64,000 bases of DNA from an uncultured Gammaproteobacteria bacterium (GTDB lineage Bacteria; Pseudomonadota; Gammaproteobacteria; UBA9214): positions 32,001 to 96,000 of the forward strand of contig CAWHCQ010000021.1 in the NCBI GenBank assembly GCA_963827755.1. Reading direction: 5' to 3'. Positions 1,036 through 61,000 of this stretch are shown piece after piece. Within the stretch, counting starts at the first letter, position 1. Every line of letters begins with the position of its first letter. The position numbers and the translations under genes were made by a program. Under the pieces are notes generated by a model. That model was not told the origin of the DNA. It saw only the letters and a program-made list of their open reading frames with translations, and ran no database searches.

Positions 1036-3249
1036 TTAACTGGACGTATGGCGCTCAAGGTTATCAACCATGACATCCTCATTCAGCATTTGCAGTCGAA
1101 TTTGAATCAGGGCACCACCGTGCTCCCCGTTTTCTACAGTGATGAAGCCGCCATGCTCTTCGACGATTTTCTTCACGATGGCAAGGCCCAGGCCGCTGCC
1201 TTTCGGCTTGGTTGAGATATAGGGTTCAAAAACGTTATCGAGCATACCCGCCGCAAACCCCGGACCATTATCACTCACAGTTAACTCAATATAACCCGCC
1301 CCGCCGGCCTGCACGGTACTGGTAGCAACGCTAACACGTGCATCCGGCTTGCCATTAACAGCTTCCAGCCCGTTTTTAACAAGGTTATGCAGCAATTGCC
1401 TGAGTCGCCCGGCATCACCTTCTATGCGGGCAGGATCCGCATGCAGTTGTTTTACTATCTTCGTGTTCAGGTCACTGCCGCTATACAGGTCCATGACTTC
1501 AGTGACGACGTCGTTCAGGTCGATCGGTTCCAGGCTCAGCTTCGGGGCGCGTGCATATTCACTGAATGCGTTGACCATTTTCTTCATCGCCTCAACCTGG
1601 CTGACGATGGTGCGCGTTGCCCGGTCAAGAAACTCGGAATCTTCCTTGTCCATATTTGCAAGATAACGGTGACGCAGGCGCTCTGCCGAGAGCTGTATTG
1701 GCGTCAGCGGATTCTTGATCTCATGGGCCAGCCGACGAGCCACCTCACCCCATGCAGCGTCACGTTCTGCCTGTATTAAAGCCGTAATATCGTCAAACAC
1801 GATGACCTGGTCTCCCTGCCGCTTGCCGTGAACCTGGAAATCGGTGCCGCGACACATAAGTACCTGGCGACCACCTGCACCAAACAGGGAAACCTCCTCC
1901 TGCCAGGTCTTGTCCTGTTTGCCACGATGGCGCAGAATAACGTCGATAAACGGCTTCAGGTACAAATGATCTTCCGCTATGCCCGGAAGCGCCTTGCCCA
2001 TATACCCCTTGAAGTCGACACCGAGACTTTGTCTCGCGGTGCGGTTCACCGCGCGCACGGCCATATCGGCATCAAGACTTATCACCCCCGATGACAGGTT
2101 TGCGAGGACCACCTCGAGGTAAGCACGCTGACCTTCAATCTGCTGCTGCCCGCGGCGCGCCTGGTTACGCGCCTTTTCGAGACGACGGGTCATATCATTG
2201 AACGAACGCACCAGGAACCCCAGTTCATCCTCACTGGCTACCGGCAAACGCTTGCTGTAATCACCCTCGGCCACAGCATGCGTCGCTTCTGCCAGGTCAC
2301 TGATCGGTGCCGCCAGGCGCCGGGCCGAGTGGAATGCCGCCCAGATCGCAGCCAGCAGACTCAGTACCAGCACGATAGACAGGGTCAGGGTATAGCTGAA
2401 CTTGAGTGGCATACGCAGGTATGCCAGTTCCTTGTAACGTGTCAGAGCAGTCTGCACACTATCTGCCAGCAAGCTGAAACGCTCTGAAACCGGGTACATT
2501 GCCTGCAGGGTATACACTCCGTGATCCTGCCGGGATGATGTTATAGGTATCAGCGCCCGCGCATATAATCCTGACTCACCAACCGGGTCCAGCCCGATAT
2601 AGTGCTGCCCCTTGCGCATGATCAACATCATTTCAGTTGTCGGCTGACTCGGTACTATATCCGTCAAGTCGGCACTGCTGTGAGCAATAGAACGCCCTTC
2701 ACCGTCAAACAGGGTCAGCTCCGAAGCGCCACTCCTGACCCTCTGATCATATAGATCGAGGGAAATCGTCGCAGCGGGTGATTTGGACAGTTCTTCCGCC
2801 ATACGCCAGGTTTGCTCGAGGACATCACTGAGACGCACATCCAGCGCAGCACGGCTGAGAACCAGCGCATCGTCCAGTCCCTGCTCGATACGCGCATCGA
2901 ACCAGCTGTCGATACCCCGGTGAAGAAACTGCAATGAAAAATAATAAACGACAGAAACCGGGACCACTGCCAGGATCACGAACATGATCACCAGGCGGGT
3001 CGTCATCATCGCACCCGGAGCCTTGTTTCGTTGCCGGCCTATCAGCCAGATGAGGTTGGCAACGACCAGTGCACCGAGGATTATCAGGGCGGCCGCATTA
3101 ATGAGCAGCAACCAGGAATACATCTGTCCAAAGCGCTCTGAATTGTGGGTGGCGTTACTCATGTAGAAGAGTGACACCAGCAGGAGCACAAACAGCACCA
3201 GCATCGGCAGCGTACCGCGCCCGGCCCGGCTCAACGGTCCAGAGACCAT
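1036..3249 (-). CDS. ntrY: NtrY-like membrane sensor histidine kinase (HAMP-PAS-HisKA-HATPase)
   Basis: N-terminal TM helices, AWGEVARRLAHEIKNPLTPIQLSAERL H-box, DNGPG and GSGLGL boxes; rsmB-DUF4390-ntrY-ntrX order. Confidence 0.9.
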   Translation of the reverse strand: MVSGPLSRAGRGTLPMLVLFVLLLVSLFYMSNATHNSERFGQMYSWLLLINAAALIILGALVVANLIWLIGRQRNKAPGAMMTTRLVIMFVILAVVPVSVVYYFSLQFLHRGIDSWFDARIEQGLDDALVLSRAALDVRLSDVLEQTWRMAEELSKSPAATISLDLYDQRVRSGASELTLFDGEGRSIAHSSADLTDIVPSQPTTEMMLIMRKGQHYIGLDPVGESGLYARALIPITSSRQDHGVYTLQAMYPVSERFSLLADSVQTALTRYKELAYLRMPLKFSYTLTLSIVLVLSLLAAIWAAFHSARRLAAPISDLAEATHAVAEGDYSKRLPVASEDELGFLVRSFNDMTRRLEKARNQARRGQQQIEGQRAYLEVVLANLSSGVISLDADMAVRAVNRTARQSLGVDFKGYMGKALPGIAEDHLYLKPFIDVILRHRGKQDKTWQEEVSLFGAGGRQVLMCRGTDFQVHGKRQGDQVIVFDDITALIQAERDAAWGEVARRLAHEIKNPLTPIQLSAERLRHRYLANMDKEDSEFLDRATRTIVSQVEAMKKMVNAFSEYARAPKLSLEPIDLNDVVTEVMDLYSGSDLNTKIVKQLHADPARIEGDAGRLRQLLHNLVKNGLEAVNGKPDARVSVATSTVQAGGAGYIELTVSDNGPGFAAGMLDNVFEPYISTKPKGSGLGLAIVKKIVEEHGGFITVENGEHGGALIQIRLQMLNEDVMVDNLERHTSS

Positions 3250-3835: not shown

Positions 3836-5140
3836 CTATTCGGCCTTCTGCAAACATGCGAAATAAAATCCATCCATTTCATTGTCACCCGGCAGGATCT
3901 GCCTGCCATACCTGCAGGCATGCCCCCACGATGCATCGAGCGGTATTTCCGCGGCATCCGCCTGCTGTCCCAGGAAACGTTCAATCTGGTCACTGTTTTC
4001 TGCTGCCAGTACAGAACAAGTGCTGTACAGGAGCATACCGTCTGGAGAGAGCAAGGGCCACAAGGACTGCAGCAGCACCTGCTGCCTGGAAACCAGCGGC
4101 ATGACGTCACCCGGCTTGCGCAATAACTTGATATCCGGGTGCCGGCGGATGACGCCGGTCGCCGTACACGGGGCATCCAGCAGGATACGGTCGTAGCAAA
4201 CACCATCCCACCAGGTCGACGGCATGGCGGCATCCGCCGCAACAAGATCCGCTCTCAGCCCGAGACGCGAAAGGTTTTCCGCGACGCGTTCGAGACGCGA
4301 CCCGTCTATATCGATCGCAGTCAGCCCGGCGAGTTCAATGCCACTCTCGAGTATGTGTGCAGTCTTGCCGCCGGGCGCCGCGCAGGCATCGAGTACGCGC
4401 TGACCGGGTTTGGCTGCAAGCAACCCGGCTGCCAGCTGTGCGGCACCATCCTGTACCGAAACGAAACCCTCGGAAAAACCCGGCAGGGCCTCAACCGACA
4501 CCGGCTTGTCCAGCAAAATACCCTCGGGAGCAATCAATGGAGTCGCATCCAGCGACCGCCCGGAGAGGATCTCCAGGTATTCATCACGCGTTATGCGTTG
4601 CCGGTTGACCCGCAAACTGAAAGGAGGGCGCCTGTTGTTGGCAGCAAGAATCGCCGGCCAGTCATTCGGCCAGTCCGCTTGCAGGGCTTCTATCAACCAG
4701 CCGGGGTGTGCATGGCGGGCCTGCGGCTGTGTGCTGATCACAGACTCGATGTCCGCTGCCCGGCGCTGATAGTTGCGCATCACACCGTTGACCAGGCCAG
4801 TGGCCCAGGACTTGTCCAGTGCCCGGACAGCCTGCACGGTTTCGTGTACTGCAACCCGCTGCGGCATGGCAAGCTGGTCAAGCTGGTACAGCCCTGTTAA
4901 CAGCAAACAGTGCAAATCGGCATCACGTTGCTTCAGTGGCTTGCGCAGCAGCTGCAGCAGTATTGCATCGAGCCTGTAATACCAGCGCAATGTACCGTAT
5001 GCAAGTTCCTGCAGCAGCGCCCGCTGGCGGCCATCCGGCAGCGGCTCCAGACCCCCGGGCAGGGCATCGGCCAGTGAGCAGCCATCGGCAATAATCCGGG
5101 CAAGTACGCGTGCCGCCCGGGCGCGCACGTCCAGCGTCAT
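3836..5140 (-). CDS. rsmB: 16S rRNA m5C967 methyltransferase RsmB
   Basis: NusB-like N-terminus, VLDACAAPGGKT, ILLDAPCTATGVIRRHPD, YSTCS. Confidence 0.97.
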   Translation of the reverse strand: MTLDVRARAARVLARIIADGCSLADALPGGLEPLPDGRQRALLQELAYGTLRWYYRLDAILLQLLRKPLKQRDADLHCLLLTGLYQLDQLAMPQRVAVHETVQAVRALDKSWATGLVNGVMRNYQRRAADIESVISTQPQARHAHPGWLIEALQADWPNDWPAILAANNRRPPFSLRVNRQRITRDEYLEILSGRSLDATPLIAPEGILLDKPVSVEALPGFSEGFVSVQDGAAQLAAGLLAAKPGQRVLDACAAPGGKTAHILESGIELAGLTAIDIDGSRLERVAENLSRLGLRADLVAADAAMPSTWWDGVCYDRILLDAPCTATGVIRRHPDIKLLRKPGDVMPLVSRQQVLLQSLWPLLSPDGMLLYSTCSVLAAENSDQIERFLGQQADAAEIPLDASWGHACRYGRQILPGDNEMDGFYFACLQKAE

Positions 5141-5161
5141 ATGTCGATCACTGGTAGCAAT

Positions 5162-6094
5162 TCAGTCACCTCCAAGGTAATCGCCTTGCAGGGAATGTGC
5201 ATTGATAAAATCCCTGGCGGCCACGGGGCGGGCACCGGGCAACTGCACACTGAGCAGCCGCAAACAGCCCTTGCCGCAGGCCACGTCGATGCCGGATGGT
5301 GTCGCCAGGACAACCAGGCCCGGATCGGCATGCGGCTCGACATCCAGCGGCAAGGCCTCCCAGATACGCAACTGCCGGCCCCGGTAGCGGGTCTCGGCCA
5401 CCGGCCACGAATTAAAGGCACGCACCTGCAGCGCAAGTTCACTGGCGGGGCGCTTCCAGTCGATCAGGGCCTCGCTTTTCTCGAGCTTGCCGGCATAGGT
5501 GACCAGCCGCTCATCCTGTGCCTGCGGGACCAGCGCGGACTGCTCCAGGGCAGTGAGCTTGGCGCACAGCAGTTCTGCGCCCAGCTTCGCCAGCCTGTCA
5601 TGCAGGCGGCTGCCGGTGTCATCCGCTGTAATCGGGCAGCGTGCAGATGCAAGCAGCGGACCGCTGTCCAGGCCTTCCTCCATTTGCATCAGGCTCACGC
5701 CGGTCTCGCGGTCGCCGGCATAAATGGCACGCTGGATCGGCGCCGCACCGCGCCAGCGCGGCAGCAGGGAGGCATGCACGTTGACGCAGCCCAGCCGGGG
5801 CATTTCCAGCACGGCGGGCGGGAGAATCAAACCGTAGGCAACGACCACCATCAAATCGGCCTGCAGTGCCGCAAGCGCCGCCTGTGACTGCGCTGTCTTC
5901 AGGCTGGCCGGCTGAAACACCGGCACCTTGAATTTCATTGCCAGCTGCTTGACCGGGCTCTCGCTGGTGCGTCGGCCGCGGCCGGCCGGCCGGTCGGGCT
6001 GGGTGTACACCGCTACCAGCTGGTGCGGGCCGTCGAGCAGGCACTGCAGGGTCGGCAAGGAAAAATCAGGTGTCCCGGCAAAGACGATCTTCAT
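5162..6094 (-). CDS. fmt: methionyl-tRNA formyltransferase
   Basis: [35 protein letters not shown]. Confidence 0.98.
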
Positions 6095-6172
6095 GGCTGC
6101 ATCCGCAGGGTAGGTGTACGGTTTTCAGGGACGGTGACGAAGGCAGGGCGTGGCAGCACGCCGGCAGGGGTG

Positions 6173-6730
6173 CTAAATGACCGGCTTGCCAGCCGGTTCA
6201 GGGCTGGCCAGCGGGGCCCGGTGCTGCACTTTCTCCAGTTTTTCCTCTTTTTCCAGTTTTTTGCGAATGCGTTTCTGCTTCAACTGCGACAAATAGTCGA
6301 CGAATAACTTGCCATCGAGGTGATCGATCTCATGCTGGATACAGACTGCCAGCAGGCCATCTGCCTGGAGTTCAAACAAGCGGCCCTCCCGGTCCAGGGC
6401 CTGCATTTTGACCCGGTCAGCACGCTGCACCATCTCGAACACGCCGGGCACCGAAAGGCAGCCCTCGTCCATTTCCTCGATACCCTCAAGTTCCGTAATT
6501 TCCGGATTAATCAGGTATAAAGGCTGGTTTCTTTCTTCCGATATATCAATTACGACCACACGCCTGTCGACATTGACCTGCGTGGCGGCGAGACCGATGC
6601 CGGGTGCCGCGTACATGGTTTCCAGCATATCATCAAGCAGCTGGCGCACCGTGTCATCCACCCGGTTTACCGGTTTGGCAATGGTGCGCAGGCGCGGGTC
6701 TGGATAATGCAGGATTTTCAGTATGGCCAT
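6173..6730 (-). CDS. def: peptide deformylase
   Basis: [23 protein letters not shown] motifs; start reset to MAILKIL at 6730. Confidence 0.98.
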
Positions 6731-6935
6731 GTGATTGCTGTCACGAATCGGAAAAGTCGCTTGCCCGTACTCTAGCATAATCTGCAATATAGCGGTCGGC
6801 TGCGGGACAAAAGGTTTTGTTTTGCGTAGAATTTCCGCTAGACTCGCGCCTAGCCGGAATGATACGGCCGAAAGGTTTTGCAGCTATCGCAAACTTGACA
6901 GGGCTCGATACAAACTCGACGTAAAGGGACATCCA

Positions 6936-7961
6936 ATGCCAATCAAGAAATTGTTCGCAATGGTCTTTGCATTACTGCTCGCCGGCCAGATCCTTGCAAC
7001 CGATGTGGTACTCAACCCGGACCACCCGGATCACTATGTCGTGGTCAAGGGCGATACCCTCTGGGACATTTCTGCCATGTTTCTGCGCGATCCGTGGCTG
7101 TGGCCTGAAATCTGGTACGTCAACCCGCAGATCGCTAATCCGCATCTGATATATCCCGGCGATCTCCTGACACTGGTCTATGTCGACGGCAAACCACAGC
7201 TGCGCCTGACGCGAGGGGACCTGAAACTCAGCCCGCGCATCCGCGCTGAAAGCCTGGAAAGTGCCATCCCGACGATTCCGCTGGATGCCATCAAACAATT
7301 CCTCACCCGGACAATCGTGGTTGACAAGGATGAACTGGATAACGCGCCCTATGTTCTGCAGAGTGCCGACGAACATGTAATCAGCGGTGCGGGAGACCGT
7401 ATCTACGCGCGCGGCATCGAGGGCAGGGATTATGCCATGTTTGACATCTACGAAAAGGGTGATGCCTATATCGATCCGGATACCCTGGAGGAACTGGGTT
7501 ATGCGGCACTGTATATCGGCACCGGGCCGGTGCAGCGTTTTGGTGATCCGACCACACTGCTGCTGACTGAAACAACCCGTGAAGTTCGTGCAGGACACCG
7601 CCTGCGCCCCGCGGAAAGCGGCAATCCGGTCCTGTATTTCCAGCCGCACCCGACACCGCCCGGTACCGAGGGCCATATCATCGCGGTCATTGACGGCGTT
7701 ACCCAGATCGGCCAGTTCAATGTCGTCGCCCTCGACCTGGGCACCCGCGAAGGTATGGAAATCGGCCACGTGATGCGCGTCTTCCAGAAGGGTGACATCA
7801 TTCGTGACCGGTTCAGCGGCATACGCCTCGACAAGGTGAAATTGCCGGACGAGGAGGCAGGCCTGGTGATGATATTCCGCACCTTCGAAAAAGTCAGTTT
7901 CGGCCTGGTCATGAAGGCAACCAGGCCTATTCACATCAATGATTTTGTGCGTACCCCCTGA
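6936..7961 (+). CDS. LysM peptidoglycan-binding exported protein (TsaP-like)
   Basis: Signal peptide, YVVVKGDTLWDIS...NPHLIYPGD LysM domain; divergent from def and upstream of dprA. Confidence 0.88.
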   Translation: MPIKKLFAMVFALLLAGQILATDVVLNPDHPDHYVVVKGDTLWDISAMFLRDPWLWPEIWYVNPQIANPHLIYPGDLLTLVYVDGKPQLRLTRGDLKLSPRIRAESLESAIPTIPLDAIKQFLTRTIVVDKDELDNAPYVLQSADEHVISGAGDRIYARGIEGRDYAMFDIYEKGDAYIDPDTLEELGYAALYIGTGPVQRFGDPTTLLLTETTREVRAGHRLRPAESGNPVLYFQPHPTPPGTEGHIIAVIDGVTQIGQFNVVALDLGTREGMEIGHVMRVFQKGDIIRDRFSGIRLDKVKLPDEEAGLVMIFRTFEKVSFGLVMKATRPIHINDFVRTP

Positions 7962-8047
7962 CGGGCACACAGACACAAACCACACCAGGGAAGGTGAACA
8001 AGTGAGACATCAACCAGCCAATCAGGGATAACGGAGCGGCCAGCCGC

Positions 8048-9184
8048 ATGGCAGTCACTCCCGCATCCCCGCAATCCACGGACACCCTCACTGACTGGCT
8101 TGCCCTGTGCCAGGCACCCGGTGCAGGCAGCGCCACCATCCGGCGCCTGCTGGACAGCTTTGCCATACCGGCGGACGTGCTCAAGGCCAGTAGCGGACAA
8201 TTACGTCAGCTCGGCCTGAAACAAGCGGCGATCGATGCCCTGCGCAAGCCGGATGAACAATCGATTACCCGTGATCTGCAATGGGCTGAGAAAGCAGACA
8301 ATCACATCATCACCTGCCTTGATCCGGCCTATCCCGTCCTGTTACTGGAACTGCCCGACCCGCCGCCACTGCTCTATGTGCATGGCAGTGTCAGCCTGCT
8401 GAGTGAACCGCAACTGGCGATAGTCGGCAGTCGTAACCCGAGCAGTTCCGGCGAGCAAACGGCGATTGACTTCGCCCGTCACCTGGCTGCCGCCGGACTG
8501 ATCATTACCAGTGGACTGGCACTGGGTATCGATGCCGCCAGTCACCGGGGCGCACTTGATGTGAATGCGCCGACGATTGCAGTAATGGGCACCGGTCTCG
8601 ACCGGGTGTACCCGGCGCGCCACCGCGACCTGGCCCGGCAAATTGCCGAACAGGGCAGCCTGGTCTCCGAGTTCCCGACCGGCACTCCGCCAAAACCGGA
8701 AAATTTCCCGCAACGCAACCGCATTATCAGCGGGCTGAGCCTGGGGACACTGGTGGTTGAGGCGGCGATTCGCTCGGGTTCGTTGATCAGCGCCCGTTAT
8801 GCCATGGAACAGGGACGCGAGGTATTTGCCATCCCCGGCTCAATCCATAACCCGTTGGCAAGGGGCTGCCACCATCTGATTCGCCAGGGCGCAAAACTGG
8901 TCGAAACCGCCGAGGATGTCATTGATGAACTGGGTAGCCTGGCCGGCGCCTGTACGCCGCCGGGCTTGCCTGCGGAAACGGCCGGCAGCCCACAGCAACT
9001 TGGCGAGGAATACCAGCAACTGCTTGACGCAGTCGGTTTTGACCCGACATCCGTCGACCAGCTGGTGGAGCGCAGCCGATTGACGCCAGCCGAAGTTTCC
9101 TCCATGCTCCTGCAGCTGGAATTGAGCGGTTATATCGCTTCCAGCCAGGGCGGCCTCTATAACAGATTGAAAAACAAAGGTTAA
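8048..9184 (+). CDS. dprA: DNA-processing protein DprA
   Basis: AIVGSRN, SGLALGIDA, FPQRNRIISGLS, SGSLI, GREVFAIPG. Confidence 0.97.
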   Translation: MAVTPASPQSTDTLTDWLALCQAPGAGSATIRRLLDSFAIPADVLKASSGQLRQLGLKQAAIDALRKPDEQSITRDLQWAEKADNHIITCLDPAYPVLLLELPDPPPLLYVHGSVSLLSEPQLAIVGSRNPSSSGEQTAIDFARHLAAAGLIITSGLALGIDAASHRGALDVNAPTIAVMGTGLDRVYPARHRDLARQIAEQGSLVSEFPTGTPPKPENFPQRNRIISGLSLGTLVVEAAIRSGSLISARYAMEQGREVFAIPGSIHNPLARGCHHLIRQGAKLVETAEDVIDELGSLAGACTPPGLPAETAGSPQQLGEEYQQLLDAVGFDPTSVDQLVERSRLTPAEVSSMLLQLELSGYIASSQGGLYNRLKNKG

Positions 9185-9186
9185 CC

Positions 9187-9660
9187 ATGAAAGAAAACGT
9201 CTTCGACGTCCTCATGTACCTGTTTGAAAACTACTACATGGACGATGACAATCCTGTCGTACCCGACCGTGATTCTGTCCAGCAGGAATTGAGCAAGGCC
9301 GGTTTCCCGCTAATGGAAATCGACCGTGCGTTCAACTGGATGGAGGGCCTGGCCACACTTCCGGCTGCACCCGCCATGCAGGCAAAACGCTCCATCCGCA
9401 TGTTTTCGGAGGCAGAGATGGGCTGGCTGGATACCGAGTGCCGCGGCTTCATCCTGTCCCTGGAGCAAATGGGTGTGTTGACACCCGCCAGCCGCGAACT
9501 GGCAATCGATCGTGCCATGGCACTGGAAAATGAATTTTTTGATATCGAGCAAATGAAATGGGTCATTCTCATGGTCCTGTTCAACCTGCCCGGAGAAGAG
9601 GCCGCCTATGCATGGGTGGAAGACCTGGTTTTTGACAACATGGTTAGCGGCCTGCATTAA
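9187..9660 (+). CDS. smg: Smg / DUF494 protein
   Basis: MKENVFDVLMYLFENY, KWVILMVLFN; dprA-smg-topA order. Confidence 0.93.
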   Translation: MKENVFDVLMYLFENYYMDDDNPVVPDRDSVQQELSKAGFPLMEIDRAFNWMEGLATLPAAPAMQAKRSIRMFSEAEMGWLDTECRGFILSLEQMGVLTPASRELAIDRAMALENEFFDIEQMKWVILMVLFNLPGEEAAYAWVEDLVFDNMVSGLH

Positions 9661-19945: not shown

Positions 19946-22027
19946 ATGACAAATCCGCTGCTTGAACTTACAGGACTGCCGCCGTTTTCCAGGATCAAGC
20001 CCGGGCATGTCGAACCGGCCATCGATCAATTACTGGATGAGGCGCGCAATCAGGTTGAAAAACTGCTTGCCGGTAATGCCGAATACAGCTGGGAAAACCT
20101 GGTTACTCCGCTGGAAGAAATGAACGACAGGATCAACCGCGCCTGGTCACCGGTGAGTCATATGAACTCGGTCGTCAACTCGAATGCACTGCGCGATGCC
20201 TACAATGCCTGCCTGCCGAAACTCAGTGAATATGCTACCGAAATGGGCCAGCACAAGGGCCTTTACCAGGCCTACCGGCAGATCGCCGACGGCGAAGAAT
20301 ACACGCGCCTGGATACCGCACAGAAAAAAATCATTGATAACGAACTGCGTGATTTCCGCCTGTCCGGCATCGAACTCGGCCAGGTCTCACAGGACCGCTA
20401 CAAGGCAGTCATGCAGGAACTCTCGAAACTCACCGCGCAATTCAGTGACAACGTGCTCGATGCCACCAATGCCTGGCACAAACAGATCAGCGATGAAGCC
20501 CTGCTGGAAGGCCTGCCGGAAAGCGCCCGCTCACTGGCGAAACAGACCGCCGAACAGCGCGACATGGACGGCTGGGTGTTCACCCTGGAGTTTCCCTCCT
20601 ACATCCCGGTCATGACCTATGCCGACAACCGCAAGTTACGTGAGGAGATGTACACGGCCTATGTGACGCGCGCATCCGACCAGGGACCGGAGAAGGTGAG
20701 ACCGGGAACCGGTCGAGAGGCTGGCCTGGGCCATGCCGGCAAGTGGGACAACACGCCGACCATGAACCGGATACTTGAATTGCGCCATGAAGCATCCATG
20801 TTGCTGGAGTTTGACAATTACGCAGAACGTTCACTGGCCACCAAGATGGCGGAATCGGTCGACCAGGTAAACGCCTTCCTGAATGACCTGGCGGCACGCT
20901 CGAAGGGCCCGGCAGCGAAGGAGCTGGATGAGGTGCGTACCTTTGCCGGCAACCAGTACGGTATCAGTAATCTGCAGGCATGGGACATCGGCTATTACTC
21001 GGAAAAATTGCGCCAGCGGAAATATGCAATCTCACAGGAAGAGCTGAAACCCTATTTCCCCGAACCCCGGGTAATAAACGGCCTGTTTGCAATCGTGCAG
21101 CGGCTCTACGGGCTGCAGATCAAGGCCGTTGAAGGCATCGACCGCTGGCATGACGATGTACATTTTTATCGCATCCATGATGCTGCCGGCGAACTGCGCG
21201 GCGAATTCTTCCTTGACCTGTATGCGCGCCAGCACAAGCGTGGCGGCGCATGGATGGATGAATGCATCAGTCGCCGGCGCACCGCAAGCGGCCTGCAAAC
21301 CCCGGTAGCCTACCTGACCTGCAACTTCTCGCCCCCCATCGGGGATGACCCGGCACTGTTCACCCATGACGAGGTAATCACCCTGTTCCACGAGTTCGGA
21401 CATGGCCTGCACCACATGCTGACACAGGTTGATTATGCCGGCGTTTCCGGCATCAGCGGCGTCGCCTGGGATGCCGTCGAACTGCCCAGCCAGTTCATGG
21501 AGAACTGGTGCTGGGAGCGCGAGGCGCTGGACCTGTTCGCCGCTCATTATGAAAGCGGCGCAAGGATTCCGGATGAACTGTACCAACGCATGATTGCAGC
21601 AAAAAACTTCCAGTCCGCCATGCAGATGCTGCGCCAGGTGGAGTTCGCCCTGTTTGATTTTCGCATGCACATGGAATACCAGCCGGGACAAAACAATGAT
21701 ATCCATGCGACCCTCAACGCGGTTCGCAAGCAGGTCGCCGTGATCCAGCCGCCCGCTTTCAACCGCTTTGAAAACGGCTTCACGCATATCTTCGGCGGTG
21801 GCTATGCCGCCGGTTACTACAGCTATAAGTGGGCAGAGGTGCTGTCGGCGGACGCCTTCTCCGCCTTCGAGGAAACCGGCATCTTCAACAGCGAAACCGG
21901 CAAGCGATTCCTCAACAGCATTCTTGAACAGGGCGGCTCCCGCGAGCCAATGGAACTGTTCATCGAATTCCGCGGCCGCGAACCGAGCATCGATGCACTG
22001 CTGCGCCACAGCGGCCTGGCAGCATAA
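19946..22027 (+). CDS. prlC: oligopeptidase A (M3) with a 14-aa in-frame insertion
   Basis: MTNPLL, HEFGHGLHH, WDAVELPSQFMENW, GGYAAGYYSYKWAE. Confidence 0.97.
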   Translation: MTNPLLELTGLPPFSRIKPGHVEPAIDQLLDEARNQVEKLLAGNAEYSWENLVTPLEEMNDRINRAWSPVSHMNSVVNSNALRDAYNACLPKLSEYATEMGQHKGLYQAYRQIADGEEYTRLDTAQKKIIDNELRDFRLSGIELGQVSQDRYKAVMQELSKLTAQFSDNVLDATNAWHKQISDEALLEGLPESARSLAKQTAEQRDMDGWVFTLEFPSYIPVMTYADNRKLREEMYTAYVTRASDQGPEKVRPGTGREAGLGHAGKWDNTPTMNRILELRHEASMLLEFDNYAERSLATKMAESVDQVNAFLNDLAARSKGPAAKELDEVRTFAGNQYGISNLQAWDIGYYSEKLRQRKYAISQEELKPYFPEPRVINGLFAIVQRLYGLQIKAVEGIDRWHDDVHFYRIHDAAGELRGEFFLDLYARQHKRGGAWMDECISRRRTASGLQTPVAYLTCNFSPPIGDDPALFTHDEVITLFHEFGHGLHHMLTQVDYAGVSGISGVAWDAVELPSQFMENWCWEREALDLFAAHYESGARIPDELYQRMIAAKNFQSAMQMLRQVEFALFDFRMHMEYQPGQNNDIHATLNAVRKQVAVIQPPAFNRFENGFTHIFGGGYAAGYYSYKWAEVLSADAFSAFEETGIFNSETGKRFLNSILEQGGSREPMELFIEFRGREPSIDALLRHSGLAA

Positions 22028-58928: not shown

Positions 58929-61000
58929 CACCAACACAGGACCTGCTGGTCGAGATCGGCACGGAAGAACTGCCCCCGAAGGCACTGCGCCGCCTGAGCA
59001 ATGCCTTCCACAGTACCGTCAGCAAGCTGCTGACTGATAACCACCTGGCACACGGCGTCAGCCACGCCTACGCCACTCCGCGCAGATTGGCACTGCTTGT
59101 TAAAGAAGTGCCGCTGACCCAGCCGGACCGCGAGGTCATCAAGCGCGGCCCTGCACTGAAGGCCGCATTTGACGAAGACGGTAATCCAACCAAACCGGCG
59201 GAAGGTTTCGCGCGTTCCTGCGGGGTCAGCGTAAATGAACTGGAACAGCTGAAAACCGACAAGGGCCTTTGCCTGGGATTGCGTTTGACCGAAACCGGGC
59301 AAACGGCCGCTGCCGTGATACCCGGGCTCATCGAGCAGGCCCTGAAAGGACTGCCGGCGCCGAAACGCATGCGCTGGGGAAGTTCGGACACTGAATTCGT
59401 GCGGCCACTGCACTGGATCGTGCTGCTGCATGGCGACCAGCCGATCAAGGCCGATATCCTCGGCATCGAGTCCGACCGTTACAGCCGCGGGCATCGCTTT
59501 CACCACAACGAGCGCATTGCCATCGCGGAGCCTGCTGCCTATGTCGAGACACTGGAAACCAGCGGTCATGTCCTGGTGGACATGGACCGCCGCCGGGATT
59601 CAATCCGCACCCAGGCCATCGAGGCCGCGGAGGCCATCTCCGGCAGCGCCCGTATAGACGATGCACTGCTCGATGAAGTCACTGCACTGGTTGAATGGCC
59701 GGTTGCCATCACCGGCGGGTTCGACCCGCGCTATCTTGATGTCCCCGCCGAGGCCCTGGTTTCGAGCATGCAGGACCACCAGAAATATTTTCCGGTGATG
59801 GACAGCAATGGCCGCTTGATGCCGAATTTTATCACCATTGCCAACATTGCCAGCCGCGACCCCGACCAGGTGCAGGCCGGTAACGAGCGCGTTATTCGGG
59901 CACGACTCGACGACGCCGCTTTTTTCTGGGAGCAGGACCGCAAACATACCCTGGAAAGTCTCGCTGCACGACTCGACAATGTCACCTTTCAGCAAAAGCT
60001 CGGCTCCCTCGGCGACAAACAACGACGCGTGGCCGTCACTGCGACCGTGGTTGCAAAGTCACTCGGGCAGGACACCGCCCACGTCATCCGCGCAGCTACA
60101 CTGTGCAAGTGTGACCTGCTGACCAGCATGGTGCAGGAATTTCCCGAACTGCAAGGCATCATGGGTTGCTATTACGCCACGCACGATGGCGAGGATTCAG
60201 CCGTCGCCGCCGCCATGGACGAACAGTACCAGCCGCGCTTTTCCGGCGATCAGCTGCCGACCGGCGTCACCGGGAAGGCCCTTGCCATCGCAGACCGGCT
60301 TGACACACTTGCCGGAATCTTTGCCCTTGGCAAACCGCCCACCGGTGACAAGGATCCGTTCGGTCTGCGCCGTGCCGCCCTCGGCGTACTGCGCATCATG
60401 ATCGAAAAACAGCTCGACCTGGATTTGCATGCACTGATTGAGACAAGCATTGCAACATTGCCGGCGGAGCTCAATGCCGGAAAAATCAGTGCCGATTTGT
60501 TTGCCTTCATGATGGAGCGCCTGCGCGCCTACTACCTGGAGGGCGACTATGACGCCAATGAATTCGAAGCGGTACTGGCGCGACAGCCGCAACGTCCGCT
60601 CGATTTCGACCAGCGCATGCGTGCCGTACATGCCTTTCGCCGGCTGCCTGAATCCGTAAGCCTGGCCGCGGCCAACAAGCGGATTCGCAATATTCTGCGC
60701 AAGGCCGAAACGCCCATTGCGGACACTTTTAAAACAGACCTGCTGCAGGATCCGGCGGAACAGGCACTTGCAGCCGCAATCGCCGCACTTGAATCAAAAA
60801 CGGCCACACTAATCGAAATGCGTGACTATACCGGGGCACTGTGTGAACTGGCGGCCCTGCAGACACCGGTCGATGCCTTCTTCGATGATGTCATGGTCAT
60901 GGCGGATGATACGGCCTTGCGCAACAACCGCCTGGCCCTGTTAAATGTCGTCTCGGAACTGTTCCTGCGGGTCGCGGATATCTCAAAACTGCAGTCCTGA
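58925..61000 (+). CDS. glyS: glycine-tRNA ligase beta subunit
   Basis: [34 protein letters not shown]. Confidence 0.98.

Follow-up and report, generated by a model that had tools for sequence, protein, structure and literature searches.

A 42-base insert in the prlC gene of an uncultured gammaproteobacterium is probably a stranded copy of a non-autonomous mobile element

The stretch analyzed here (hereafter, the window) comprises 64,000 nucleotides from an uncultured Gammaproteobacteria bacterium of the lineage UBA9214 (assembly GCA_963827755.1, contig CAWHCQ010000021.1, positions 32,001 to 96,000 of the forward strand). At 19946..22027 on its plus strand it contains prlC, which, as judged from the list of open reading frames, Pfam, and orthologues, encodes an oligopeptidase A of the PrlC/OpdA type (peptidase M3) with 693 amino acids, including the insert that is the subject of this study. 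The product matched PF01432 (Peptidase_M3; E = 5.3e-149) and PF19310 (TOP_N; E = 3e-30), and the HEXXH zinc motif is present, with H482, E483, F484, G485, and H486 invariant among 26 PrlC orthologues. Positions 20690..20731 on the plus strand (GAGAAGGTGAGACCGGGAACCGGTCGAGAGGCTGGCCTGGGC) are translated in the prlC frame as EKVRPGTGREAGLG, residues flanked by ...TRASDQGP on the left and HAGKWDN on the right. These limits are the codon-aligned ones of a first-pass annotation of the window, and they fit empty alleles reading CCG CAT GCC GG; that annotation had proposed that the 42 bp represent a miniature hairpin-bearing mobile repeat inserted in frame into loops of housekeeping proteins, possibly belonging to an undescribed coding-repeat family. 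The insert has a G+C content of 69%, as compared to 57.4% for the genome, and contains the only AGA codon of prlC, one of its two CGA codons, and one of its five GGA codons, in agreement with the annotation, which had called these codons atypical for the gene. The genome from which the window derives (G000) consists of 2.85 Mb in 52 contigs, with 91.8% completeness and 5.4% contamination.

A protein search with prlC identified orthologues in 38 of 41 genomes, and 30 loci were cut out and aligned over the region of interest. Among these 30 loci, only G000 and its nearest relative, G012 (92% amino acid identity), carry the insert; 28 of the 29 loci from other genomes, representing the same genus and the same class, lack exactly 14 residues. 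At the empty loci, ...GP is directly joined to (H/Q/N/T/D)AG (e.g., DQGPNAGKWDN in L030). Presence of the insert is all-or-none (28 empty loci, with G000 and G012 filled), and this region is therefore not a gradually variable loop. Two of the prlC genes found in relatives are irregular and may represent pseudogenes or assembly errors; one of these (G018:C6:36132-38170) is split into three parts, two of which are separated by a TAA, and the other (G022:C8:295632-297668) contains an internal TGA.

An AlphaFold2 model of PrlC, built on the 26 orthologues, has a mean predicted local distance difference test (pLDDT) score of 89.8 and places the insert in a coil (residues 241–269) between two helices; the sole stretch with pLDDT <50 (residues 251–261) falls within the insert. 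In this predicted structure the 14 extra residues sit in a surface loop of PrlC. The prlC genes of G000 and G012 differ at 235 of 2,052 bases (88.5% nucleotide identity), with no changes in the insert, which hints at either constraint or homogenization. Compared naively, 0 of 42 changes in the insert against 11.5% elsewhere gives P ~0.006; the mismatch-free run across the insert (51 bases) is, however, the second longest in the gene, and the existence of another clean run of 53 bases makes any extra conservation of this copy only suggestive.

Comparison of the window with other sequences defined a block of 51 bp (20689..20739, plus strand; GGA, the 42-base unit, and TGCCGG) that is common to other copies according to both blastn and contig depth. 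We compared positions 20400–21000 with Logan contigs from three sediment DNA runs of different studies (X2, X3, and X4) and from one RNA library. In the DNA runs, summed contig depth was ~4–20 over prlC and 5,000–9,500 over 20694–20735, and loose ends of contigs begin at 20688/20689 and at 20735–20739. The 51-bp block is a very abundant repeat in the sampled sediment communities; being hundreds-fold deeper than its flanks, and with many contigs ending there, it is a likely cause of fragmented assemblies in this group. The left junction between prlC and the element is crossed in X3 (record 17) and X4 (record 25) and the right junction in X2 (record 12), by contigs with 0–4 mismatched letters. 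No contig skipping the insert was found in the three DNA runs or in the RNA library; rare variants are lost from contigs, however, and fixation is not demonstrated thereby. A repeat erroneously joined into the prlC gene of a metagenome-assembled genome (MAG) might be expected in a draft of 52 contigs with 5.4% contamination, given an abundant repeat at which sediment contigs often break. Such an artefact of assembly or binning is nonetheless extremely improbable, because contigs of separate runs and studies span the junctions and none skips the insert; in addition, the insert is in frame, is exactly 42 bp long, and occupies the same site in a second species (G012), and an analogous insert in glyS, described below, is common to three species and has diverged along with them.

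The short-word BLASTN search suggested in the first-pass annotation returned a single 42-mer in G000, and blastn of the block (20689–20739) matched at least 20 unrelated loci in relatives, with 96–100% identity; the latter matches come from species whose PrlC is only 74–79% identical. The protein search with prlC also gave ~20 small matches to residues 245–266 elsewhere in relatives, and the DNA underlying these matches contains the 42-mer. Copies were counted with a 41-base core allowing up to 3 mismatches, with the reversed pattern as a control. A total of 138 copies were found in 29 of 37 genomes of the genus. In the order (one family with six genera), the total was 309, with 1–30 copies in each of 45 genomes (12–30 in several) and none in the other nine of the 54. 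A 401-genome sample of the class included 398 genomes belonging to other families, and only one of these held the element; the reversed pattern gave no match in any genome. The consensus of the 42-mer is invariant across the six genera. These 309 copies, together with the all-or-none orthologous sites and the absence of matches to the reversed pattern, bear out the proposal of a miniature hairpin-bearing mobile repeat, and they contradict a sequence confined to prlC. In a collection of species genomes, the exact pattern was present in at least 118 stretches, and all titles among the matches listed were those of uncultured gammaproteobacterial MAGs; the viral contigs of IMG/VR contained no exact match to the 42-mer pattern. 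No report of this element was found in the literature searched, which is not proof that none exists. The single genome with copies outside the family (G191, 69% complete) carries them at C40:2357-2397 and C117:5784-5824, with one mismatch each; transfer, a misplaced lineage, or bin contamination could account for them.

G000 itself contained no second copy when searched with the pattern (up to 3 mismatches), with blastn-short, and with an nhmmer profile of 130 copies, for which the prlC copy scored E = 3.6e-17 and the next best match 0.49. This genome holds 168 GGATGCCGG sites and 14 perfect hairpins with an NGGA loop, yet only the copy in prlC. The 42-mer family seems to be otherwise extinct in G000, with the prlC copy a fossil that survives as part of a gene.

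Copies were gathered with their flanks, initially as a set of 132 distinct copies and later as a set of 213. The unit has the same extent at all sites, i.e., 42 bases reading GAAGGTGAG...CTGGGCCA (GAAGG...GGGCCA); it is preceded by GGA in 126 and followed by TG in 123 of the 132 copies (195 and 182, respectively, of the 213), with no target duplication and with a junction ambiguity of one A. While the 42 extra in-frame base pairs in prlC were recognized correctly at the outset, comparison with the family moves the unit two bases to the right, to 20692..20733 (plus strand), between GGA and TG; an alignment that lacks the ancestral prlC allele fits either delimitation. Placed at 20692–20733, the unit would split a presumed Asp codon (GA^T), turning D into E...H. 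TGCCGG directly follows the unit in 29 of the 132 copies. In prlC, the CCGG of this target-like TGCCGG (20736..20739) is the right arm of a short palindrome that flanks the insertion point and whose left CCGG lies at 20687..20690 (both on the plus strand).

The commonest intergenic target reads GGCA-NGGA^TGCC-GGG. The unit splits the loops of unrelated hairpins resembling repetitive extragenic palindromic (REP) sequences, including CTGCA-GGGA^TGCAG, GTACA-GGGA^TGTAC, CCTACA-GGGA^TGTAGG, and GGCA-(T/G)GGA^TGCC-GGGAGCG, and empty versions of each of these host hairpins, reading GGATG, are present in the same loci. A hairpin loop with a perfect stem of at least 4 bp surrounds 117 of the 213 copies, as compared to 398 of 8,359 control GGATG sites in G000, so that hairpin loops are favored without being essential. 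Copies lie within clusters of GTAG- and CGTC-headed repeats. Other REP-like families of the relatives, headed GTAGGAGCG..., GTAGCCCGGATGGAGCG..., and CGTCATTGCGAGCG..., are nested in one another, with the 42-mer innermost; G000 contains 107 heads of the GTAGGAGCG type. In two copies (L162 and L163, from G050, ~1565–1625, minus strand), the loop of the stronger of the two hairpins of the unit is replaced or filled by ~19 bases (GAGACC-gtttttacgggcatagccc-GGGTCGAG), so the 42-mer can itself host an insertion. Two copies located 68 bp apart in L046 raised the possibility of a CRISPR array, which was ruled out, as copies are dispersed singly and their flanks consist of other repeats.

Only three of the 132 distinct copies are intragenic (in prlC of two species and in glyS of one), the rest being intergenic; two further glyS copies were found beyond this set. 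Since the unit is 42 = 14 × 3 bases long and five of its six frames are open (i.e., contain no stop), in-frame insertion needs no special mechanism. A Pfam scan of 20 long open frames spanning copies yielded one true internal case, the glyS gene of G017, where PF02092 extends to residue 509 and DALR_1 begins at residue 565. Candidates in pheT and cysS were rejected, as the copy is upstream of the gene, and a Carbam_trans_C match in L120 belongs to a neighboring frame, the copies there being intergenic.

Among 30 glyS loci of the genus, the insert is present in three (G017, G016, and G009), which read NWYT-EK(V/E)RPGTGREAG(L/T/P)GH-AGYD, while 24 loci read D-(A/T/S)-G, one reads E-A-G, and two (G018 and G021) have an additional codon and read TEQ(G/C)D. 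In G006, the closest relative with an empty site, the sequence is GTG GA^T GCC GGT; this is exactly the family target, GGA^TGCCGG, and the cut falls within an Asp codon. This empty site is the clearest proof of the GGA^TG rule, with the 42 bases turning D into E...H. The glyS units drift, with G017 and G016 differing at 4 of 42 bases and at the first base after the unit (CAC and CAT). The insert yields the same peptide in glyS as in prlC. In the two longer loci (L297 from G018 and L299 from G021; NWYT-EQ(G/C)D-YDV), the extra codon lies exactly where the sister clade carries the 42-mer, and it may be either a trace of imprecise loss or an indel unrelated to the 42-mer. The glyS gene of the window itself (60293-60751) is empty and reads LEGDYD at this site, and therefore does not provide a GGATGCCGG target. 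The proposed in-frame entry into housekeeping genes is seen in prlC, where the model predicts a coil, and in glyS, but nearly all copies are intergenic, and, with only 3 of 132 copies inside genes and REPs in open reading frames already described (excerpt of PMC3733652), the idea of an undescribed coding-repeat family does not hold. The 42-mer is an intergenic, hairpin-seeking element that now and then enters genes and survives there as 14 open codons.

Several intergenic copies lie close to genes. In three species (L035, L042, and L050, from G015, G013, and G023, respectively), an orthologous copy precedes an obg-like gene (MKFIDEATIDV...) by ~20 bases, and copies occur in the leaders of pheT (L067) and cysS (L124).

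The unit contains two hairpins. Hairpin 1 (GACCGG-GAA-CCGGTC; 20700..20714, plus strand) has a perfect 6-bp stem, present exactly as first annotated, and was recovered here through covariation; hairpin 2 (TGGC-CTGG-GCCA; 20722..20733, plus strand) is weaker, was identified by pairing, and forms the right end of the unit. Structure was scored over 114 distinct rows for both hairpins plus the host stem, and the covariation observed for this whole structure was reached by none of 500 shuffles. Hairpin 1 showed both-sided changes in 5 of 6 pairs, with 97.8% of cells paired, and it is under selection. For hairpin 2, 99.1% of cells were paired with no double change in the 114 rows, too little variation to judge; double changes do occur in the wider copy list, i.e., CCGGCC...GGCCG in G060 and CTGACC...GGTCA in G059. 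The outer CCAGG (20680–20684) and CCTGG (20725–20729), which had been annotated as a pair, are both present, but one arm lies in prlC proper and is absent from other copies; the pairing is therefore incidental and not a feature of the family. A rival structure from RNAfold, which pairs CCGGG with CCTGG and CCGGTC with GGCTGG, showed no compensatory changes and paired no better than shuffles. The fold of an 81-nt RNA was no more stable than shuffles (z = −0.28), stability alone being uninformative, and a hammerhead-like ribozyme core suspected by eye was ruled out, with no support from Rfam.

Conservation of a structure raises the alternative that the 42-mer is a motif selected by the host, e.g., an element for RNA stability or termination or a protein-binding site, whose coding copies are accidental. 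The invariance of the consensus over six genera would fit this alternative, as would the identity of the prlC copy in two species and the location of many copies just past T-runs 3′ of genes or in the leaders of pheT, cysS, and the obg-like gene. In contigs of the RNA library, the block also reached a depth of ~95–157, compared to 2 in its flanks; this library may contain DNA, however, and its contigs carry no strand. Against a host-selected motif, Rfam gave no family match at 8 loci with E up to 1 (only a tRNA and a sub-threshold Ysr141 were reported, both off the element), the glyS copies drift at 4 of 42 bases between G017 and G016, and no wobble asymmetry marks an RNA strand. We consider this explanation improbable, as it leaves the precise presence or absence of 42 bp at unrelated GGA^TG sites unexplained, although it is compatible with mobility.

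With moderate confidence, we interpret the prlC insert as a copy, now stranded, of a non-autonomous mobile element of 42 bases that would move as single-stranded DNA, cut and joined by an enzyme of the HUH/Y1 type acting in trans. The element carries a 6-bp hairpin near the left end and a 4-bp hairpin at the right end; within the order, it would have been copied into GGA^TG without target duplication, often into the single-stranded loops of REP-like hairpins. The enzyme, supplied in trans, may be similar to the transposases of IS200/IS605 insertion sequences (IS) or to REP-associated tyrosine transposases (RAYTs) and could act by cut-and-paste or by copying. The landing in prlC, at CCG GA^T GCC GGC, would have taken place before G000 and its nearest relative diverged from their common ancestor; it would have split an Asp codon so that D became EKVRPGTGREAGLGH and 14 residues were added. 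PrlC may have tolerated the insert because its length is divisible by three and the frame entered is free of stops. The transposases of IS200/IS605 bind hairpins in subterminal position and cut next to a conserved tetranucleotide adjacent to the left end (excerpt of PMC6006769), and, by analogy, this cleavage layout would fit the 42-mer, with GGA to its left and GCCA at its right end. A search for RAYT/TnpA-like genes, as proposed in the first-pass annotation, did find Y1_Tnp (PF01797) genes in 48 of the 54 genomes of the order, including four matches in G000, but tied none of them to the 42-mer.

Several observations weigh against this interpretation. Across the 54 genomes, no enzyme could be tied to the 42-mer and presence of PF01797 does not track copy number; G067 (13 copies), G044 (8 copies), and G056 (7 copies) have no PF01797 match, in G066, whose chromosome is a single contig with 15 copies, the sole match stays below the cut-off (E = 5e-4), and genomes that have no copies do carry Y1 genes. 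Among the matches listed, a single copy has a Y1-like gene within 200 bp (at ~150 bp), a frameshifted one (G054:C21). No longer element with the same ends was found among the DNA within ~1.5 kb of the 213 full copies. Hairpin 2 extends to the last base of the unit, whereas the IS608 layout has the cleavage site outside the hairpin. A perfect stem of at least 4 bp is missing at the sites of about 45% of copies, G-T and A-C mispairs (10 vs. 6) gave no strand signal, and the nearest empty prlC alleles read CCG CAT/CAC/CAA and not GAT. The Y1-like gene in G054:C21 (L088, 839-1463; motif HLYQGRFKE) is adjoined by a REP-like cluster. No Y1 gene was flanked by the 42-mer among the listed coordinates, which leave out 159 copies and one Y1 match. 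Matches to one end of the unit only comprise 10 left-end and 9 right-end cases; the latter are all indel variants or chance matches, and none of the partial ends bounds a gene. The closed chromosome of G066 carries nine forward and six reverse copies.

A more tentative alternative, to which we assign a minor share of the probability, is that the 42-mer represents the complete and self-sufficient substrate of an unrecognized system for copying, one that would home, within DNA hairpins, to NGGA loops on their 3′ side. Its enzyme would be encoded by the host and inherited vertically and would not necessarily be a classical Y1 transposase; a host-encoded, vertically inherited enzyme would explain why one consensus is found in six genera. 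The 42-mer might then be a gammaproteobacterial counterpart of the small dispersed repeats (SDRs) of cyanobacteria, for which, to our knowledge, the mechanism is still unknown.

The prlC event also has to be reconciled with the alleles of relatives. In the genus, the empty prlC alleles have CAT, CAC, CAA, CAG, AAC, or ACN at the insertion codon, most of them reading CCG CAT/CAC GCC GG, and GAT was found only in a distant relative (L026). Since the nearest empty alleles do not have GAT, the prlC event needs an unseen ancestor with Asp or another route; entry would have involved either an ancestral Asp at a variable position or a patch guided by an 8-base match, CATGCCGG. The latter route is the basis of a further explanation, in which template switching or short-patch gene conversion, guided by microhomology, would have transferred the 42 bases to prlC from a copy residing in a REP, with donor ...GGGCCATGCCGGG and target CCGCATGCCGGC sharing these 8 bases. 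With the common CAT/CAC alleles as targets, the limits 20690–20731 would need no ancestral change; the commonest donor context has TGCCGG (29 of 132 copies), no transposase is linked to the 42-mer, and the lack of changes between the inserts of G000 and G012 would fit later homogenization from other copies in G012. No donor copy remains in G000, however, and the glyS empty site obeys GGA^TG exactly. Elsewhere the exact 42 bases are found at GGA^TG in unrelated flanks (TGCAGG, TGTACA, TGTAGG, TGAACA, and others) with only five bases in common, too few to direct a template switch with such precision. A templated patch is unlikely overall.

If the 42-mer is a mobile element as we propose, a 14-residue loop of a conserved peptidase would be tolerated parasitic DNA and not an adaptation, and occurrence of the same peptide in glyS would indicate that the insertion process recurs. 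The system provides an unusually clean case: the unit has 42 bases and the target five, nothing is duplicated, copies nest in other repeats, and essential genes offer filled sites with matching empty ones. The 42-mer is among the smallest units with such evidence for mobility, and its main value may be as a well-defined system for finding the enzyme; given the tiny unit, the five-base target, and the filled and empty sites available in prlC and glyS, the mechanism would be directly testable with synthetic oligonucleotides.

Among known elements, the non-autonomous derivatives of IS200/IS605 are similar to the 42-mer in being short and non-coding with hairpins near both ends and in inserting beside a fixed short left sequence, without target duplication, at precise all-or-none sites; Y1 (HUH) genes, with the mechanism described in an excerpt of PMC6006769, are common in the genomes that host the 42-mer. 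Unlike these derivatives, the 42-mer has only 42 bases, its right hairpin reaches the last base, and the TG after the unit is also conserved; neither an autonomous parent with the same ends (near known copies) nor a linked TnpA (among the listed coordinates) was found. The 42-mer behaves as an IS200/IS605 derivative on two of four tests, i.e., subterminal hairpins and left-flank insertion without duplication.

The family also shares features with REP, BIME, and REPIN elements and their RAYTs, and an ordinary element of this type, amplified by a RAYT (TnpA-REP) and belonging to the known REP superfamilies, would be a further explanation. The 42-mer is palindromic and of REP-like size, 129 of 132 copies are outside genes, copies are found in mosaics with GTAG- and CGTC-headed repeats, stem changes are compensatory, the family persists long in its lineage, and RAYT-like Y1 genes are present in 48 of the 54 genomes of the order. 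Nesting of REPs in other palindromes and their occurrence inside open reading frames, including those of tRNA synthetase genes, have also been described (excerpt of PMC3733652). In contrast, neither strand of the unit has the GTAG, GTGG, or CGTC head expected from the rule GT[AG]G (or CGTC) at the 5′ foot of the hairpin (excerpts of PMC6006769 and PMC3733652); the hairpin foot is preceded on its 5′ side by GTGA. The canonical search rule uses stems of 7–20 bp, as compared to 6 bp here, and one consensus is found in six genera, whereas REPs are described as species-specific (both in the excerpt of PMC6006769). Copies number 1–30 per genome, not hundreds (typically >100 for REPs), the 42-mer is nested in REP loops instead of paired with REPs, and no REPtron-like flanking of a Y1 gene was seen among the listed coordinates. 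Because of the missing head, the 6-bp stem, and the low copy number, we did not file the 42-mer as a REP or REPIN, and we regard this explanation as quite unlikely.

The Rickettsia palindromic elements (RPEs) have a length of ~100–150 bp. They are similar to the 42-mer in being palindromic repeats found in frame in genes that are likely still functional (excerpt of PMC3733652). Unlike the 42-mer, they are found in a different bacterial class, and many RPEs are coding, as compared to ~2% of the sampled 42-mer copies; the comparison is one of behavior alone. Insertion sequences that target REP hairpins are known to make target duplications. These elements (IS1397/ISKpn1, ISPpu9, and others) share with the 42-mer the use of REP sequences as insertion targets, but are full insertion sequences with their own transposases, whereas the 42-mer codes for nothing; REPs or palindromic units as insertion targets have been described by Tobes and Pareja (2006) and in a J Bacteriol 1999 paper, as cited in PMC3116915, as well as in PMC8450116 (excerpts). 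Classification as a transposable element of the miniature inverted-repeat type (MITE), defined by terminal inverted repeats of 15–30 bp, a target-site duplication, and a length of 70–300 bp (excerpt of PMC3733652), was rejected, as the 42-mer has only 42 bp, its ends (GAAGG/GGCCA) are not inverted repeats, and it makes no target duplication. The 42-mer is not a coding-repeat family, and the kind of element that it represents is already known (REP, PATE, RPE, SDR).

The cyanobacterial repeats SDR4–6 are, like the 42-mer, very small repeats that bear marks of mobility and have no known enzyme, and SDRs are reportedly nested in other repeats and in hairpins. SDR4–6 differ from the 42-mer in their length (21–27 nt vs. 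42), sequence, and target. SDR5 has a fixed short insertion site (HIP1), and these repeats have been reported from the Nostocaceae alone (excerpt of PMC5861425). It is these cyanobacterial small dispersed repeats that the 42-mer appears to resemble most in its behavior.

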